NCBI GenBank assembly: GCA_028718745.1
Contig: JAQULF010000001.1
Location: 31,666 to 95,665 of the forward strand
DNA: 64,000 bases
From: Patescibacteria group bacterium
Lineage (GTDB): Bacteria; Patescibacteriota; JACPGU01
Direction of reading: 5' to 3'
Under the pieces are notes generated by a model. The model was not told the DNA's origin, ran no database searches, and worked only from the letters and a program-made list of their open reading frames with translations. Positions 15,490-60,977 of the stretch are shown piece after piece (within the stretch, counting starts at the first letter, position 1; every line of letters starts with the position of its first letter). A program made the translations under genes and the position numbers.

Positions 15490-16395
15490 TTGTGGCTTCT
15501 GTCACAGAACCAAAACATTAATCAAAAGACCATGTCAGCTTACGATGACTTTCAAAATAGATTCAAACTATTAGCCAGCAAGAATCCACATCTGGTTATA
15601 AATACTTTGTCTAACATTTTTACTATGAGGCTAATCGGCAATAAAACCCATGGTGATTTAGCCGAAATTGGAATGGCCGAATTTATCAATCAGTTTATGT
15701 ATGACTTTAAGAGTATCCATGTCGGCAAGGATTTATTTCGAGCCAAAGAACACGAAGAAGACATTATTATTATCAATGAAATTACAAAAACCGAATTCCC
15801 ATTAAGCTTAAAAGCGTACGGCGACGGTCCTCTCCAGCTTTCGACCGATAGTGATCAAAAAATGTTTCCATTCTTGGAAAAACAGGGAAGAAACATTACG
15901 GATAGAGACAAGATCAAAAAAATCTTTCAGTCAAAAGAATTTGCGGATTTTGATGCGATTAATGTTATGCCTCTTATCTATGATGAGAAAAAACAACGGT
16001 GCAACATAATGATTTTCGATCATAAAAAAGCTATGAGTAAAACAGAAAGAATTATCTTTATTGATAAAAATCAAAGATTTGATTCAGAAACGAGAAGGGT
16101 AATTCCAGGCAAGGGTAGATCGCATCCTATTTTTATGTTTGTTGATAAAAAAAGCAACTACATTTGTGAAGTTCGGTACGGTGGCGCATCCGCCAATGCT
16201 TTACAGAGAGGCTTGTGGACGCATACAAAAAACGCCGTTTCCTATTTTGATTCTTTGACAAACGGCTGGATTGATTATTCTCACAATCACGCTCTTGTAA
16301 CATTATTTAGTCTGGCACTTAACAGTTCGGAATATGGTCATAAATTGGCCAATGAAATATTGCAAAAAGACATTGATAGACTCAAAACGCTATGA
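15490..16395 (+). CDS. putative type II restriction endonuclease (cognate to downstream Dam-like methyltransferase)
   Basis: 301-aa ORF with no homology recognised; stop overlaps MTase start (ATGA); very AT-rich; alternative start MSAYDD at 15532. Confidence 0.4.
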   Translation: MWLLSQNQNINQKTMSAYDDFQNRFKLLASKNPHLVINTLSNIFTMRLIGNKTHGDLAEIGMAEFINQFMYDFKSIHVGKDLFRAKEHEEDIIIINEITKTEFPLSLKAYGDGPLQLSTDSDQKMFPFLEKQGRNITDRDKIKKIFQSKEFADFDAINVMPLIYDEKKQRCNIMIFDHKKAMSKTERIIFIDKNQRFDSETRRVIPGKGRSHPIFMFVDKKSNYICEVRYGGASANALQRGLWTHTKNAVSYFDSLTNGWIDYSHNHALVTLFSLALNSSEYGHKLANEILQKDIDRLKTL

Positions 16396-17582
16396 GCAAT
16401 CAACAAGATATATTTGGGAAAATAATGGTCTCAACGCCAAAAACACAGGGAATAAAATATGCCGGATCCAAACTGAAAATTTTACCCTATATTATTGATA
16501 TTGTCTCGGAATTAAAAGGAGTTAAAAAAGTGCTCGATGGTTTTACAGGAACAACTCGTGTCGCGCAAGCGCTCGCCCAGCTTGGTTATGATGTGACTGC
16601 CAGCGATATTTCCACTTGGTCGGAGGTTTTTGCCAATTGTTATTTGAAATCAAAAAAACCGGATGAGTTTTATCAAGATATTATCAACCATCTCAATGAT
16701 CTCAAGGGTTATGATGGCTGGTACACGAAGTATTACGGCGGAAAATTAACAGGGGATGATAAAAGGCCGTTTCAAGTAAAAAATACGCGCAAATTAGATG
16801 CCATAAGAGATGAAATAGAAAAATTGAATCTGGAGTGGGTTGATAAATGCGTGATTTTAACCAGTTTAATTTATGCGCTCGACTCTGTCGATAGCACTCT
16901 CGGGCATTATGTAGCCTATCTTTCTGAATGGTCGCCGAGATCACATAATGATCTGGTATTAAAACTGCCAAAAAGGTTTGAAGGCGAAGGTAAGCACAAA
17001 GTAATCCGGAGCGATATTTTTGAGACTATTGCAAATGATGAATATGATCTAGCTTATTTTGATCCGCCCTATGGCTCCAACAATGAAAAAATGCCACCTA
17101 GTCGAGTTCGCTACGCATCTTATTATCACATTTGGACAACTATTATAAAGCATGACAAGCCGGTTGTTTTTGGAAAAGTAAATCGCCGAGAAGACAGTCG
17201 GGATTTGGTAGCTGGTTCGGTATTTGAAGAATTTAGAAAGGATAAAAATGGTTCTTTTGTCGCTATGCAGGCGTTGCGCAAATTGGTAAGAGAAACAAAG
17301 GCGCGCTATATATTGTTGTCATATAGCTCCGGTGGTAGAGCCACAAAACAGGAACTCAACGACATAATAAATGAATCGGGTAAATTATTAAAGGCTGTTG
17401 AAATTGACTACAAGAAAAATGTGATGGCTAATATGCGCTGGACGCACGAATGGATCAATAGTGATGAAAAATATCATGAATATCTTTTTCTAATGGAAAA
17501 GAATCCTGTAAAAAGTAGCTATTTAGATCAAGAGCGAATATTTATGAATAAAAAAGTTCTGGTTTGCAATCCGATTGGTTAA
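16392..17582 (+). CDS. N6-adenine DNA methyltransferase, Dam/D12 class
   Basis: N-terminal IKYAGSKLKILPYI (Dam KWAGGK-like motif), LDGFTGTT, catalytic YFDPPYG (DPPY). Confidence 0.8.
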   Translation: MSNQQDIFGKIMVSTPKTQGIKYAGSKLKILPYIIDIVSELKGVKKVLDGFTGTTRVAQALAQLGYDVTASDISTWSEVFANCYLKSKKPDEFYQDIINHLNDLKGYDGWYTKYYGGKLTGDDKRPFQVKNTRKLDAIRDEIEKLNLEWVDKCVILTSLIYALDSVDSTLGHYVAYLSEWSPRSHNDLVLKLPKRFEGEGKHKVIRSDIFETIANDEYDLAYFDPPYGSNNEKMPPSRVRYASYYHIWTTIIKHDKPVVFGKVNRREDSRDLVAGSVFEEFRKDKNGSFVAMQALRKLVRETKARYILLSYSSGGRATKQELNDIINESGKLLKAVEIDYKKNVMANMRWTHEWINSDEKYHEYLFLMEKNPVKSSYLDQERIFMNKKVLVCNPIG

Positions 17583-19471: not shown

Positions 19472-19543
19472 GTCCTCGTAGTTTAATGGATAGAATGCGG
19501 CCCTGCGAAGGCTGCGATCCAGGTTCGATTCCTGGCGAGGATA
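19472..19543 (+). tRNA. tRNA-Arg (anticodon GCG), G1-U72 acceptor pair
   Basis: cloverleaf: acceptor GTCCTCG/CGAGGAT, D-arm with GG, anticodon stem CGGCC/GGCTG with loop CTGCGAA, T-arm CCAGGTTCGATTCCTGG; discriminator A. Confidence 0.6.
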
Positions 19544-19559
19544 TTTAATTGTAGCAAAG

Positions 19560-19625
19560 GGTTCGCCCAGTCATCCGACTGGGCGACCGATCGAATGATC
19601 GGTCGATTCCTAGTGGGGATATTTT
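19560..19625 (+). other. tRNA 3-prime-end-like remnant: two GC-rich hairpins plus degenerate T-loop/acceptor copy
   Basis: gcccagt-catccg-actgggc and gaccgatc-gaat-gatcggtc hairpins then ggtcgattcctagtggggata, resembling the tRNA 3-prime end ggttcgattcctggcgaggata. Confidence 0.4.
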
Positions 19626-19628
19626 TCT

Positions 19629-19640
19629 TGTCATCCTCGA
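19629..19640. repeat. Solo copy of 12-mer terminal repeat TGTCATCCTCGA of the MITE-like family
   Basis: identical to left terminal repeat at 46312-46323. Confidence 0.5.
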
Positions 19641-19832
19641 GCTTCTGCTCCGTACTCGGACAGAAAATCGGGGATCCAATACAACAAGAATATATAGTTC
19701 CTGATTGATTTTTATATTTTTTAATGATAAGATTTTATTTAAGAGGGCGCTGTTTGCCCTTTTTGTGTTTTATGTATCTTAAGAACTTGACGATTTCAAT
19801 AATTGAAAAAATAAAAAAACGGGGGTGTCACT

Positions 19833-23482: not shown

Positions 23483-23743
23483 ATGAATACAAAAACTGTC
23501 AAAAAAAGAGTAAAGGTGCTGGATATCGCGATGATACAAATTCCATTGTCCTCTTTGCGTTGCATCCTTTCTTATCCAAAAGAGAACAAAATTATTTGCG
23601 AGATTGATGTAAAAAGCATAGAGAGAGTGAATAAATCCAAAGATTTAGATGAAATAATCAATGAATCTCGCCTTGATTATGCGCTCGGAAATTACAAATC
23701 CTTTGCTTCCGCCAAAGATCTTATTGCTGAATTAAGATCGTAA
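23483..23743 (+). CDS. putative antitoxin (partner of downstream RelE/ParE toxin)
   Basis: 86-aa ORF 6 nt upstream of toxin gene; no strong motif. Confidence 0.4.
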   Translation: MNTKTVKKRVKVLDIAMIQIPLSSLRCILSYPKENKIICEIDVKSIERVNKSKDLDEIINESRLDYALGNYKSFASAKDLIAELRS

Positions 23744-23749
23744 ATAAAA

Positions 23750-24031
23750 ATGAAAATAAATCTCTCGCACAGATTTAAGAGATCATATAAAAAGCTACCC
23801 TCAAATATCAAGGATGATTTTGATAAAAGGATAGCTCTTTTTATTGATAATCCCAAAAATCCAAAATTGAAAGTGCATAAACTAAAAGGAAGACTGCAAA
23901 CTTGTTTGTCTTTTTATGTGCAAGATGGCTATAGGGTTCTTTTTGATTTTTCAGAAAATAATACCGAAGATAAGGTTGTTAATCTGCTCGATATCGGTTC
24001 GCATGATAAATATCGGAATTGGGAAAAATAA
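23750..24031 (+). CDS. Type II toxin, RelE/ParE family
   Basis: 93 aa; KLKGRLQTCLSFYVQDGYRVLFDFSENNTEDKVVNLLDIGSHDKY pattern of RelE/ParE/YoeB-like toxins. Confidence 0.65.
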   Translation: MKINLSHRFKRSYKKLPSNIKDDFDKRIALFIDNPKNPKLKVHKLKGRLQTCLSFYVQDGYRVLFDFSENNTEDKVVNLLDIGSHDKYRNWEK

Positions 24032-30932: not shown

Positions 30933-31073
30933 TTTTTCCCTTTCTAACCCGGCGAATGCCGGGTAAAAAATTTTAGATTATTTATATGACTTAATTTTCT
31001 CCATTCTAGCATAGTTTCATTTTTCTAGCTACTATTTTTGTTTAGAAAGTGATAAAATGAAAAACACCACGCA

Positions 31074-31174
31074 TTGTCATTCCGGTGCTTCTGATGTAAT
31101 CATCAGAAAAACCGGAATCCAGGCCTGGATCCTTGATTTACTGTTGAGTACAACAGTGCTCAAGGATGACAACT
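31074..31174. repeat. MITE-like repeat element copy A (imperfect TGTCATYC ... AGGATGACAAC termini)
   Basis: shares gatccttgattt, ctgttgagtacaacag / ctgatgagtacatcag and aggatgacaac with copy at 46312-46472. Confidence 0.65.
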
Positions 31175-35258: not shown

Positions 35259-35540
35259 ATGTTACCAAATATAGTAACCACCTCCCAACTTCGCCAGAAT
35301 CTTTCCGCCTTTCTAACGCTGGCCGGAAACAACCTTGTGATTGTTAAAAGCAAAGAGTCAAACAAAGTGATCATGGATGAAAAAGAATATAATCGCCTTT
35401 CGTCTCTAGCCAATCAATTTATAAATGAAGATCCCGAAGGAAAATACCGTCCTTCATTTGAAAAAGAAATTCTAAAAAGATCTCGTGATGGTGATATTGA
35501 TAAAAGAGTCAAATCTCTTAAAGCTCTATGCACAAAGTAA
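35259..35540 (+). CDS. Type II antitoxin, Phd/YefM-like
   Basis: MLPNIVTTSQLRQNLSAFLTLAGNNLVIVKSKESNKVIMDEKEYNRL resembles Phd/YefM; overlaps toxin start; inverted repeat gttaccaaatatagtaac at its start. Confidence 0.6.
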   Translation: MLPNIVTTSQLRQNLSAFLTLAGNNLVIVKSKESNKVIMDEKEYNRLSSLANQFINEDPEGKYRPSFEKEILKRSRDGDIDKRVKSLKALCTK

Positions 35541-35797
35541 CCATTCAATATCATAAAAAGTTTGTAAAAGAGTTTCAAAAACTGCCAAAAGAAATTCAAG
35601 AAAAAGCGGTTTTGTTGGAAAATATTTTTTGCGCCAATCCATATCATCCGGAGCTAAAAACAAAAAAGCTGCAAGGTAAATTGCAGTTATTTTATTCTTT
35701 TCGCATCACAAGGGACTATCGAATTATTTTTGAATTTATAGATCCGGCAACAACGCTCTTTCTCGCCGCCAAACATAGAAAAGACATCTATAAATGA
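35528..35797 (+). CDS. Type II toxin, RelE/ParE (YoeB/YafQ-like) family
   Basis: KLQGKLQLFYSFRITRDYRIIFEFIDPATTLFLAAKHRKDIYK. Confidence 0.7.
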   Translation: MHKVTIQYHKKFVKEFQKLPKEIQEKAVLLENIFCANPYHPELKTKKLQGKLQLFYSFRITRDYRIIFEFIDPATTLFLAAKHRKDIYK

Positions 35798-37105: not shown

Positions 37106-37348
37106 TTATTTAGTGATCAATTCTTCTTTGACCTTCTTGCTCATCTTCTTTATCTCAATCTCCCGTTTCAACGCTCCTGATCTTGTTTTAAATTTTTCTT
37201 GATAGACAATTTTTATCGGCTTATTTCTCTGCGTATATTTGGCGCCTTTCCCCTCGCAGTGCAGCAAAAATCGCTTCTCAACATCAACAGCAATACCCGT
37301 ATAGAGCTTATTGTTTTTGCAAAGAAGAATGTAGAGAGAGTAGGACAT
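37106..37348 (-). CDS. GIY-YIG nuclease family protein (UPF0213/YhbQ-like)
   Basis: YSLYILLCKNNKLYTGIAVDVEKRFLLH (GIY...YIG) 80 aa. Confidence 0.8.
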   Translation of the reverse strand: MSYSLYILLCKNNKLYTGIAVDVEKRFLLHCEGKGAKYTQRNKPIKIVYQEKFKTRSGALKREIEIKKMSKKVKEELITK

Positions 37349-37370
37349 TTAATAATTCTAATACATTTAA

Positions 37371-37753
37371 TGGACCTGGAGGGAATCGGACCCTCGTGCA
37401 AAAAGTTAAAAAAGCAGCCTCTACAAGTTTAGTTCCGGTTGGTATTTTGGACAGAAGTAACTTGTCCCGCCAAAGGCGGGAAACCGAAACAAAATAATTC
37501 TATCCTATCCTTAATAGTCTTAACCCCGCCTACCAAGGAATACCTGGGCGGGGAGCAGCCCAATAAGTTGACACCGCATTCATATCCTTGGGCGAAATAT
37601 GGTGCGATGCCTGCTTGTCGTTTTTTAGGCGAAAGCAGGGGCAAAATTTGTTTTGCCTTGTGTTGTTGTTTGATTAGTTTTAAGAGTTTACAAACATCAC
37701 TCTACTTGCATCCGCTTTTTTAAGGATCTTTTTGGCGATACCAATGCAGGCCC
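37371..37753 (-). ncRNA. ssrA: tmRNA (SsrA)
   Basis: minus-strand 5-prime GGGCCUG pairs with 3-prime CAGGUCC-A giving G3-U70; T-arm GAGGGTCCGATTCCCTC; internal tag frame GGC AAA ACA AAT TTT GCC CCT GCT TTC GCC TAA (GKTNFAPAFA) about 96 nt from 5-prime end; TATAAT just upstream. Confidence 0.8.
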
Positions 37754-44525: not shown

Positions 44526-46304
44526 TGTTCTCCTTGCTCTATTCCGATCATTCTCTGTGAGATACTTTTTTCTCAACCGAATACTTTTCGGAGTTATTTC
44601 GAGATATTCGTCGTCGCTCATTGTTTCCATTCCTCTTTCGATGTTAAGTTTAACCGGTGGAACCAGTTTGATCGCTTCATCATTTCCCGCGGCGCGGGTA
44701 TTGGTTAGCTGTTTTCCTTTGGTCGGATTAACCGCCATATCATTTCCTTTAGCGCAGTTGCCAATTACCATACCCTCGTAAACTTCAGTGTTGGCGTCAA
44801 TATATAATTGTCCACGATCTTGTAGATTCCAAAGCGCAAAGCCGAGAGCCTTGCCGGTCGCCATAGAAATCATTGAACCTAATTCATTTTTCTCGATCTC
44901 GCCAACGAATTCTTTGAATCCAATTACGCGCGAATAAAGAATTCCTTCGCCTTTAGTGTCTATGATAAATTCTCCGCGATAGCCCAAAAGCCCGCGGGTT
45001 GGTATCTCATAAATAATGCGAGTGTGTCCACCTTCAGGTGTCATTTCCAGCAATTTGCCCTTTCTCTTGTTTAACTTTGCAATTACCGTTCCTGACAATT
45101 CATCCGGAACACTGATGGTTACTTCTTCAAACGGTTCCAGTTTAACTCCACTCTCTTCTTTTATAATCACTTGCGGTTGAGAAATTTGAACCTCAAAACC
45201 TTCCCTTCTCATATTTTCAAGTAATATTGAAATGTGAAGCTCGCCCCTACCAAAAACTTTGTAGGAATCATTAGAGGAAAAATCAATTTTTAGCCCCACA
45301 TTCACTTCCAACTCTTTTTTCAATCTTTCTTTAATTTGACGATTAGTCACAAATTTTCCTTCGCGACCGGCAAATGGAGAGTTATTTACTAAAAAGCTTA
45401 GACAAATTGTCGGTTCATCAATTTTTATTTCCGGCAATGCCTCTTGGTCTTTGTCTAGACATATAGTTTCTCCGATAAAAATATCGGGGATTCCGGCGAT
45501 CATGACTATATCGCCTCCGTAAGCTTCGGAAACTTCTTGGCGCTCTATGCCGTTGAAATTAAAAAGCTTGGTAATCTTGCCATTGCGAACTGAACCGTCA
45601 GTTTTTTTAACGATCACATTGGAAGGCGCTTTGATGGTGCCCTCGTAAATTCTACCAACAGCAAGCCTACCCAAAAAATTATCATAGGCCAGATTGAATG
45701 GCTGAAAACGAAGTGGAAGATCCGGTTCTGATCGAGCCGGTGGAACCACACGAAGGATTGTGTCGAGCAATGGTGTTAGGTCAGAAGAATTGTCTTCCAG
45801 TTTTAATTTGGCTATGCCGTCTCGTCCGACAGCATAGACAGTTTCAAAGTCTAATTGCTCGTCGGTCGCGCCAAGATCGTAAAATAATTCAAAAACCAGT
45901 TCCTGGACAATTTCGGGACGGGCTGCCGGCTTGTCTATTTTGTTGATTATAACAATAGGCTTGAGACCAAGCTCAAGCGATTTTTTCAAAACGAACTTGG
46001 TTTGAGGCATCGGCCCTTCCTGCGCGTCTACGACGAGCAATACTGAATCAATGGAGCGTAAAACTCGCTCAACTTCCGATCCGAAATCGGCGTGTCCGGG
46101 AGTATCTACGATATTGATCTTGGTATCTTTGTAGAAAATTGAAGTATTTTTTGAGTAAATAGTAATACCGCGCTCTTTTTCCAGAGCGTTATTGTCCATG
46201 CTTACTCCTTCAGCCACAACGCCAGTCTGGCGCATCAAGGCATCCGTAAGCAAAGTTTTTCCATGATCTACATGGGCGATAATAGCTATATTCCTAATAT
46301 CCAT
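44523..46304 (-). CDS. typA: Translational GTPase TypA/BipA
   Basis: [27 protein letters not shown]; BipA C-terminal domain. Confidence 0.95.
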
Positions 46305-46311
46305 TTTTTTC

Positions 46312-46472
46312 TGTCATCCTCGAACTCTATTTCAACTTAACCAAAAATATATATAAAAAAGTTGAAGAGAATATCAAGGATCTGCTATTTTATTGTGCTA
46401 AATTACTTTTTTTATTCCTGTCAGAGATCCTTGATTTCCTGATGAGTACATCAGGAGCTCGAGGATGACAAC
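46312..46472. repeat. MITE-like repeat element copy B with perfect 12-bp terminal inverted repeats TGTCATCCTCGA / TCGAGGATGACA
   Basis: left TIR 46312-46323, right TIR 46459-46470; internal hairpin cctgatg-agta-catcagg; in divergent typA/DUF456 intergenic region. Confidence 0.7.
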
Positions 46473-46607
46473 CAAGAAACAAAAAATCGCGACATTGTTC
46501 TCGGCACACTTAGCGTCGCGAAGTAACTTAATTAGTATACACAAAACCGCCTTTTTAGTCAATAGTTTTTGATTTGCGTAAAAATTTCTTTGTGTTAGAA
46601 TGTCGTT

Positions 46608-60431: not shown

Positions 60432-60689
60432 TTACTTATACAACTGGCTGTGAGTTCCGATGGCGATAAAGATAATATCGTCTGACTTTTCTTCAAAAAT
60501 AGCTCTGTAATTGCCAGAAACATTAATGCTTCTTAAACCATTTAATTTACCAGAAAGAGAATGGTTTTTTAGTATAGGATCATATTTGTCTGACTTAAAT
60601 ATTTCTAGTCTTTCTATAAACCTATCTTTAATTTCTTGAGGACATTTCTTAAACGCCTTATCAAATTTTTTAGAGGAGCCAACGATCAT
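60432..60689 (-). CDS. Type II toxin, RelE/ParE (YafQ-like) family
   Basis: LSGKLNGLRSINVSGNYRAIFEEKSDDIIFIAIGTHSQLYK. Confidence 0.7.
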   Translation of the reverse strand: MIVGSSKKFDKAFKKCPQEIKDRFIERLEIFKSDKYDPILKNHSLSGKLNGLRSINVSGNYRAIFEEKSDDIIFIAIGTHSQLYK

Positions 60690-60698
60690 AAAATATTT

Positions 60699-60977
60699 TT
60701 ATATTTGTTTTAGATGAGCTATAAAACTATCCATATTTTTAAAACTTTTCATCTTACCACTCTTATACTCTTCTTTGGCTTCTTTTATTGCTTCGAGTAA
60801 TTCATCCGAAGGATTGGACTCATCCTCATTTAAACTGATATGTAATTCTTTTTTAACTACAAATCTTCTTAAATAGATATTTAGAACATCACTCAAATTA
60901 AGTCCCATCTCCTCTGCAATTTTTTGAGCTTGGGTTTTGATTTTTTTGTCAGTTTTGAAATTGATAACAGTGGTCAT
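60699..60977 (-). CDS. Type II antitoxin, RelB/DinJ family
   Basis: MTTVINFKTDKKIKTQAQKIAEEMGLNLSDVLNIYLRRFV. Confidence 0.65.
   Translation of the reverse strand: MTTVINFKTDKKIKTQAQKIAEEMGLNLSDVLNIYLRRFVVKKELHISLNEDESNPSDELLEAIKEAKEEYKSGKMKSFKNMDSFIAHLKQI

Follow-up and report, generated by a model that had tools for sequence, protein, structure and literature searches.

TGTC-tagged nested hairpins in a Patescibacteria contig as probable members of the family of CGTC-tagged repeats and Ssn-related motifs

The DNA analysed here, referred to as the window, is a 64-kb stretch of contig JAQULF010000001.1 from a Patescibacteria group bacterium, and the elements in question are short hairpin repeats in its intergenic regions. 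Two repeat regions, copies A and B, had been described in the original prediction as members of a family resembling MITEs (miniature inverted-repeat transposable elements). Copy A lies between the divergent genes for LemA (minus strand) and a DUF2207 protein (plus strand), and copy B lies between the divergent genes for BipA/TypA (minus strand) and a DUF456 protein (plus strand). The prediction had placed both copies upstream of the plus-strand genes, which is true; because the intergenic regions are divergent, however, both copies are upstream of the minus-strand LemA and BipA genes as well. A covariance model built from 23 units and run on the window revealed five copies of one hairpin unit of approximately 50 nt, each with an E value between 7e-17 and 2e-5, and no further unit above noise. 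The window units are 48–76 nt long, with 26–50 nt between the outer stem arms, nested hairpin included. Read on its tagged strand, the unit consists of 5′-TGTC, AT plus a 6-bp stem, a nested hairpin, the complementary stem arm plus AT, and CCA-3′. The consensus of the complementary, untagged strand is GGATCCYYGA-TTTnCTGnn-GAGTAC-nnCAGnnGC-TCRRGGATGACA.

Unit C (19626–19678, plus strand; 59.8 bits, E = 1.7e-13), with its tag at 19629–19632, reads 5′-TGTC AT-CCTCGA ... TCGGGG-AT CCA-3′ and is located after the tRNA-Arg gene (19472–19543) and before a terminator-like hairpin (19741–19763). The sequence formerly regarded as a solitary left terminus beside this tRNA gene (19629–19640) is exact there, but it is part of this complete unit. 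Copy A comprises unit A-left (31072–31121, plus strand; 64.7 bits, E = 8.9e-15), with the tag TGTC at 31075–31078 and a CCA tail, and unit A-right (31126–31174, minus strand; 61.4 bits, E = 6.7e-14), whose tag is the complement of GACA at 31168–31171. Their outer stems are ATTCCGGT/ACCGGAAT and ATCCTTGA/TCAAGGAT, and their nested hairpins are CTGATG-TAAT-CATCAG and CTGTTG-AGTA-CAACAG, respectively. A strandless central palindrome, TCCAGGCCTGGA (31118–31129), joins the two units across a 4-nt spacer, ggcc (31122–31125). In copy B, unit B-left (46309–46384, plus strand; 28.8 bits, E = 2.4e-5), whose tag (46312–46315) is 8 nt from the bipA start codon, has the usual tag, outer stem, and tail region and a longer interior formed by a TTCAACTT...AAGTTGAA arm and an AT-rich loop. 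A strandless, AT-rich spacer of 39 nt (46385–46423) separates it from unit B-right (46424–46473, minus strand; 72.7 bits, E = 7e-17), whose tag is the complement of GACA at 46467–46470. The nested hairpin of B-right is CTGATG-AGTA-CATCAG, and this unit was 96% identical to units of several metagenome loci.

Copies A and B thus each consist of two units in head-to-head inverted orientation with the tags outward, and this pairing produces the apparent terminal inverted repeats (TIRs). The three blocks that copies A and B had been reported to share were all found at the predicted positions. The 12-bp inverted termini of copy B are perfect, and over a length of 16 nt they are still 94% complementary, but they are the outer tagged ends of two separate hairpin units. 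The hairpin pattern CTGNTGAGTACANCAG matched the window three times against 0.09 matches expected, and for TGTCATCCTCGA, perfect matches were located at 19629 (+), 46312 (+), and 46459 (−) and a copy with a single mismatch at 31160 (−). All five window units contain TGTCAT, as do 51 distinct units of alignment A3. A cytosine directly follows the stem in all five window units (ATCCAA, ATCCAG, ATCCAG, ATCTG, and ATCTC); units C, A-left, and A-right have a CCA tail, and in the units of copy B the tail is CTG or CTC. The outer stems are 8 bp long and of the forms ATCCTCGA/TCRAGGAT and ATTCCGGT/ACCGGAAT.

Folding of the unit was examined by covariation and by energy calculation. Among 53 aligned units, 97.3% of the cells were paired and 66 double-sided changes were counted, a score reached by none of 500 shuffles, whereas only 31–52% of the cells were paired in slid controls. 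The first two stem columns held AU and UA pairs in 50 of 51 and 49 of 51 units, respectively. The outer parts of the units were nearly invariant, and the inner stem varied both in length and through substitutions that compensate each other (TTG/CAA, ATG/CAT, TCCG/CGGA, TCGG/CCGA, TCAGGC/GCCTGA, and CCCG/CGGG). The outer stem covaried too (CCTTGA/TCGAGG, TCCTGT/ACAGGA, TCCGGT/ACCGGA, and CCCTGT/ACAGGG). Unit C showed 92% identity to the units of a Patescibacteria metagenome-assembled genome (MAG; locus L001) and 89% to that of a Saccharibacteria MAG (L003), with compensatory inner changes of TCCG/CGGA versus TCGG/CCGA. Folded as single-stranded DNA (ssDNA), the A doublet and every window unit other than B-left had z values between −3 and −9; unit C gave −12.3 kcal/mol (z = −4.2), unit B-right gave z = −4.0, and the doublet at 31072–31174 gave −30 kcal/mol (z about −9). 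The fold of unit B-left alone was weak (z = −1.2). In this lineage, the nested hairpin, together with an internal loop, replaces the usual 4–5-nt loop; the inner helix CTGNNG-AGTA-CNNCAG and the internal-loop bases TTT/AGC (untagged strand) are conserved.

The family extends beyond the window. An exact-pattern scan of species-representative genomes located the unit in the Patescibacteria MAG (JAKLDG01) and the Saccharibacteria MAG (CAYHEQ01), and a scan of metagenomes returned 29 loci, comprising 23 true copies and six chance matches in GC-rich coding sequence; the viral contigs scanned contained no copies. The covariance model recognised approximately 35 units in the loci of relatives, where single units were at least as common as pairs. 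The units were always intergenic, often 4–12 nt from start or stop codons, and across 25 loci the flanking genes were arranged divergently, in tandem, or convergently, with units pointing either way with respect to them. All 12 doublets examined had one and the same inverted arrangement with outward tags. Doublets of the B type, with spacers of 39–50 nt, were found beside BipA, YraN, and RadA genes in different genomes, and the sequence of the copy B spacer was not conserved in the others. The long-interior type of unit B-left is also kept in L012, L020, and L021, next to unrelated genes. Two loci of relatives (L023 and L004), syntenic with 46.8–53.9 kb of the window at 70–82% nucleotide identity, carry units at sites that are empty in the window, and vice versa. 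In the empty-site comparison with these loci, the flanking gene content differed at both informative sites, so that insertion boundaries are not definable by that comparison. The unrelated neighbours and the non-conserved positions exclude a gene-specific regulatory element and indicate turnover. Promoter and terminator scans of the unit regions gave background levels, and together with the variety of gene contexts and orientations and the unrelated neighbours, this speaks against the proposal that the repeats are a mobile promoter or regulatory module. Target-site duplications, for which the original prediction had suggested a search, were not observed, as no direct repeats flank the 12 doublets or the five gene-carrying elements examined.

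The gene-carrying elements pair the hairpins with a small GIY-YIG gene, a combination for which there is a precedent. In Neisseria, the motif NTS (CGTCATTCCCGCGMAVGCGGGAATCYRG) has been generalised to "Ssn-related motifs" (SRMs), which flank homologues of ssnA, a gene whose product is a single-domain GIY-YIG protein of 94 aa (family cd10448); at least one SRM occurs in the vicinity of 71% of the ssnA homologues, and SRMs lie on both sides of 42% (Chenal et al., Nat Commun 2025, PMC11893778). In locus L019, two units 334 nt apart enclose a small GIY-YIG open reading frame (ORF), which served as the query of a homologue search. All nine distinct homologues fetched (approximately 95–121 aa) adjoin such hairpins, and six of the nine sit between two of them; their loci span the candidate phyla radiation (CPR), Gammaproteobacteria, Melioribacteraceae, Syntrophales, Kiritimatiellae, and Alphaproteobacteria. 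The gene is located between two units in L019, L033/L034, L035, L036/L037, and L038, and also in L040/L041, there within unit arrays. Both units are downstream of the gene in L039; units are present downstream only in L044 and upstream only in L045, and in L042/L043 the gene is located within arrays that include variant-tagged hairpins. The loci of Syntrophales, Kiritimatiellae, and Rhizomicrobium homologues bear hairpins as well. Outside the CPR, the hairpin of these loci has the sequence TGTCATTCCCGCGAAAGCGGGAATCCAG, which is that of the Neisseria NTS, or one very similar to it. In the CPR loci L033/L034, L035, and L036/L037, the spacing is fixed: left unit, ggcY, approximately 30 nt, ORF, 6 nt, and right unit.

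The flanked proteins match PF01541, are mostly 95–100 aa long, and are 60–67% identical to proteins flanked by canonical NTS. Their catalytic residues are spaced Y-11-Y-47-E, as are Y6, Y17, and E64 of SsnA (PMC11893778), and they match UPF0213 structures weakly (E = 6e-6). Judged by these similarities, the gene flanked in the relatives is predicted to encode a GIY-YIG nuclease of the Ssn kind and not a transposase. The Ssn-like ORF of L019 (1524–1818) is frameshifted in an A-run (…KQLKE*), which reflects either a pseudogene or an assembly error.

Several of these loci have further structural features. The element of L038 (Magasanikbacteria) lies between pheS and pheT and has inverted hairpin ends of 35 nt, and that of L039 (a gammaproteobacterial MAG) lies between pilP and pilQ. 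In a contig of SRR11697952 that represents L039 (250–740), ssn and an SRM doublet are bracketed by a 23-nt direct repeat (AGTGAAATAACAAAATTnAGAGG), which covers the ribosome-binding region of the downstream gene and is the sole feature resembling a target duplication among all loci. In L040/L041 (Melioribacteraceae JBGORM010000001.1, 203–216 kb), an identical 95-aa Ssn-like protein is encoded twice, 6.5 kb apart. These two copies lie in alternating TGTCATTCCCGCGnAAGCGGGAATCCA/TGGATACCCGCTTTCGCGGGTATGACA hairpin arrays and flank a molybdopterin oxidoreductase operon.

Copy A corresponds closely to the ends of such elements. In alignment A2, the A-type doublets (window, L009, L023, and L032) matched the ssn elements (L035, L033, L036, and L019) at both ends, and the sole difference was an internal segment of approximately 340 nt with the GIY-YIG ORF. 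The junction, ATCCAGGC followed directly by CTGGAT, is the point at which the elements carry this segment and was identical in all four doublets, and the one-base-shorter right-unit variant CAGTGCTC was common to copy A and L035. Because copy A consists of the ends of an SRM-ssn-SRM element minus the gene, it represents a gene-less deletion derivative or an unoccupied shell. The view of the repeats as non-autonomous transposable elements therefore holds in part: the family is dispersed and multi-copy, its positions are not conserved, and it has a gene-carrying counterpart, but neither a target-site duplication nor a transposase in the window was found.

The SRM-ssn-SRM unit may itself be a mobile, selfish element resembling an insertion sequence (IS), with the gene entering or leaving existing SRM doublets, although this is a tentative and rather doubtful possibility. 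The shared junction is compatible with two histories: the gene may have been lost precisely, or it may have homed into a doublet at its palindromic centre; with homing, the two units of approximately 50 nt fit the role of portable homology arms. The identical ssn copies in L040/L041 and the insertions at pheS/pheT (L038) and at pilP/pilQ with its 23-nt flanking duplication (L039) point in the same direction, as do the nested-hairpin form missed by the published pattern and the occurrence in CPR bacteria. The correspondence between doublets and elements and the insertion-like contexts support the IS-like idea without proving mobility. If it is true, the census of the family is an underestimate and the mode of spread is directly testable.

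Taken together, the five window elements are most likely members of the family that comprises the CGTC/TGTC-tagged repetitive extragenic palindromes (REPs) and the SRMs. SsnA binds its motif only as ssDNA and on one strand only, does not bind RNA, and cleaves only ssDNA, strand-specifically, with the cut placed upstream of the motif by a few nucleotides; cutting is governed by the three bases that precede the palindrome, and binding by the C that follows it (PMC11893778). In N. meningitidis, the system lowers the integration of NTS-bearing transforming DNA (PMC11893778). By analogy with these homologues, the hairpin would be exposed when the tagged strand becomes single-stranded, as in incoming transforming DNA or in replication and repair intermediates. 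The exposed hairpin would be bound by an Ssn-family enzyme, a small nuclease with a single GIY-YIG domain, and the ssDNA would be cut 5′ of the TGTC tag, within a few nucleotides of it; such cutting would, as in Neisseria, lower the recombination of incoming DNA near the repeats. Whether an Ssn enzyme encoded elsewhere in this genome would cut in this way at each window tag appears to us about evenly balanced. On the plus strand, cutting is predicted immediately to the left of 19629, 31075, and 46312, and on the minus strand immediately to the right of 31171 and 46470.

Several observations weigh against this assignment. None of the five window units matches the published degenerate SRM pattern, HGTCWYN(0-2)YYVSBRHN(0-5)WNVSBRGN(0-2)RNCYNB, because of their long nested loop and because the type-1 stem has T and A at the V and B positions of the pattern. 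With the loop relaxed to 0–70 nt, A-left alone among the window units matches. The same pattern does match units in L036/L037 and L039–L043, and L039, L041, L042, and L043 carry TGTCATTCCCGCGnnnGCGGGAATCCAG, which equals the NTS consensus apart from the first base. The outer stem CCTCGA/TCRAGG differs from ATTCCC/GGGAAT, and sequence counts as well as shape in recognition of the motif (PMC11893778). In most type-1 units, the outer stem contains a C-A mismatch when the tagged strand is read, corresponding to a G-T wobble on the other strand (a T-G pair in columns 9/44 of alignment A1, in 15 of 23 units); this would be unexpected if only the tagged strand folds, and the canonical NTS palindrome has no such mismatch. 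In a tblastn search with an Ssn-like protein, no Ssn-clade gene was detected in the 64-kb window. Its only GIY-YIG ORF (37106–37348, minus strand; 80 aa, single-domain) has no adjoining hairpin unit; it matches PF01541 (E = 1.4e-16) and PDB 1ZG2 (E = 2e-15), is of the UPF0213/YhbQ type, shares only 35% identity with the Ssn-like proteins, and is situated 20 nt downstream of a transfer-messenger RNA gene (37368–37753, minus strand).

Other origins for the family were weighed against the same data. As classical MITEs, the repeats would be deletion derivatives of a DDE-type IS, acted on in trans at 12–16-bp TIRs by a transposase that leaves target-site duplications. Such an origin would suit the perfect 12-bp inverted termini of copy B, the dispersed and position-variable family, and the resemblance of copy A to an internally deleted form of the gene-carrying element. 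Each supposed TIR, however, forms one half of a local hairpin, and the covariation of the stems marks a folded-strand signal rather than a duplex one; single units are no rarer than pairs, no direct repeats adjoin the 12 doublets or the five gene-carrying elements, no transposase or integrase family occurs among the 28 window ORFs scanned, and the full element carries a gene for a GIY-YIG nuclease of approximately 100 aa in place of a DDE transposase. This origin is largely refuted and retains a minimal probability. REPs and REPINs mobilised by a REP-associated tyrosine transposase (RAYT; an HUH transposase of the IS200/IS605 Y1 type), with the GIY-YIG gene as a passenger or mere neighbour, would have the same architecture of short tagged hairpins, inverted doublets, clusters, and absent target duplication. 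CGTC-tagged REPs have in fact been set beside GTAG-tagged REPs as a sister superfamily, but no tyrosine transposase flanked by CGTC repeats was found (Di Nocera et al., BMC Genomics 2013, PMC3733652). Because the tag is TGTC or CGTC and not GTAG, no Y1 transposase was seen among the window ORFs scanned, and the consistent partner is a GIY-YIG gene (9/9 here and 71% in PMC11893778), mobilisation by a RAYT is highly improbable.

A cis-acting RNA would instead place the function in the transcripts of LemA, DUF2207, BipA, and DUF456, as a 5′-leader, a hairpin sequestering the Shine-Dalgarno (SD) sequence, an mRNA stabiliser or terminator, or a portable promoter. In copies A and B, the untagged-strand transcript of each unit would enter the adjacent gene, and REP-type hairpins are known to influence mRNA stability (PMC3733652). 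The motif GAGGA in the 3′ arm of the long-interior units is also close to start codons: it is 12 nt before the starts of bipA in the window and of yraN in L012 and 20 nt before that of radA in L021. The position of the arm places the only SD-like sequence (GAGGA) of these three genes within a hairpin stem, which could have an incidental influence on their translation. Such local effects on transcripts would not, however, account for a family that occurs in all gene contexts and both orientations across 25 loci, beside unrelated genes and at positions not conserved with a syntenic relative. Searches of Rfam gave no gathering-threshold match, with none at E <= 10 on two intergenic regions and none at E <= 1 on four ssn loci; promoter-like sites were at background level, and SsnA does not bind RNA (PMC11893778). 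A cis-acting RNA is therefore very unlikely as the basis of the family, and membership in the CGTC/TGTC-tagged REP and SRM family remains the preferred reading.

Several narrower candidates were also considered and rejected. B-right contains CUGAUGAG, reminiscent of a hammerhead ribozyme, but it has no GAAA core or stem III, and in A-right the motif is replaced by CUGUUGAG. CTGT-N8-ACAG, resembling a LexA/SOS box, is present in A-right, and L003 is located upstream of uvrB, but the inner stem varies by compensatory changes and in length. The R′/R″ cores of an integron attC site are absent, sites for a sigma-70 promoter inside the unit or spacer are at background level, and a leader RNA specific to one gene does not agree with B-type doublets adjoining BipA, YraN, and RadA.

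Some observations concern the surroundings of the units and other genes of the window. The 3′ arms of the long-interior units (window 46302–46325; L012 895–910; L021 1060–1085) end in …TCGAGGATGACA, 4–12 nt ahead of the initiation codons of bipA, yraN, and radA. Between the tRNA-Arg gene and unit C (19544–19626), two perfect GC-rich hairpins are present, TCGCCCAGTC/GACTGGGCGA (19563–19586) and CGACCGATC/GATCGGTCG (19584–19605), of which the first contains GTCATCC. They are followed by an imperfect copy of the 3′ end of the tRNA-Arg gene (GGTCGATTCCTAGTGGGGATATTT versus GGTTCGATTCCTGGCGAGGATATTT). The covariance model gave this stretch no score; it could be an integration scar at the tRNA gene or a degenerate SRM. 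At 15490–17582 (plus strand), an ORF without a Pfam match (15490–16395) overlaps the start of a 396-aa ORF with an FDPPY motif, which is typical of N6-adenine/N4-cytosine DNA methyltransferases, and the two ORFs probably form a restriction-modification pair. Small toxin-antitoxin-like ORF pairs are located at 23483–24031, 35528–35797, and 60432–60977, and the pair at 60.4–61.0 kb belongs to the RelB and YafQ/ParE families.

The assignment extends the Ssn/SRM system, a recently characterised mechanism that resembles ssDNA restriction and modulates natural transformation in Neisseria, into Patescibacteria (CPR). Genomes in the CPR are small, and these bacteria are believed to rely on taking up DNA. 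The published SRM survey drew on RefSeq reference and representative genomes, and its main text is silent on CPR (PMC11893778); our literature search for REP or MITE repeats in Patescibacteria/CPR returned nothing relevant. Because the published pattern misses the long nested-hairpin form, current SRM counts are probably too low. For annotation, the window elements are not promoters, riboswitches, or classical MITEs. The gene-less doublets that match the ends of ssn elements provide a handle on how transposase-less CGTC-tagged REPs multiply.

Among known systems, the Neisseria Correia elements and other bacterial MITEs share with the window family their small size, intergenic position, inverted termini, long hairpins, and capacity to alter the expression of neighbours. 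The Correia elements differ from it in their 26-bp duplex TIRs, TA target duplication, and DDE-type logic, whereas the window family has single units, covarying stems, and no duplication. In REP/REPIN-RAYT systems and bacterial interspersed mosaic elements, as here, tagged hairpins of ssDNA form inverted doublets and clusters, and the gene for a small nuclease has its own repeats on its flanks. The difference lies in a GTAG tag with an HUH tyrosine transposase (IS200/IS605-like Y1) on one side and a TGTC tag with a hydrolytic GIY-YIG nuclease on the other. The mobility of REPINs has been demonstrated, whereas that of SRMs has not.

The CGTC-tagged REPs, which include Neisseria dRS3 and Rickettsia RPE-4 and RPE-6, have a CGTC tag (or TGTC or CCTC variants), stems of 8–9 bp starting with AT, loops of 4–5 nt, and a CCA tail; inverted (head-to-head) dimers prevail among them, they "lack a dedicated transposase", and they have been reported from five phyla, CPR not among them (PMC3733652). 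The window units resemble them in the unpaired tag, the 8-bp stems with A-T/T-A first pairs, the CCA tail, and the inverted dimers, and likewise lack an associated transposase and target duplication. They differ in having 26–50 nt between the arms, compared with loops of 4–5 nt, with few exceptions, in the described families; short-loop forms such as TGTCATTCCTGCGAAAGCAGGAATCCA occur in relatives. With SRMs and NTS, the units share the 5′ (C/T)GTCAT tag, a palindrome with C straight after it (…ATCC(A/G)G), a near-exclusively intergenic and often paired or clustered occurrence, and, in relatives, the SRM-ssn-SRM arrangement with a GIY-YIG gene for approximately 95–100 aa. Unlike these, the window units are 48–76 nt long compared with approximately 28 nt, have a nested hairpin in place of a 0–5-nt loop, and have outer stems of CCTCGA/TCRAGG or TCCGGT/ACCGGA compared with TCCCGC/GCGGGA; their host belongs to the Patescibacteria/CPR, and no ssn gene lies inside the window. 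The authors of the SRM study themselves pointed out the IS-like NTS-ssnA-NTS architecture and the parallel with REPs and RAYTs (PMC11893778). The system is already known, and what the window adds is a probable member from a CPR lineage, with repeats of a long-loop, nested-hairpin form.

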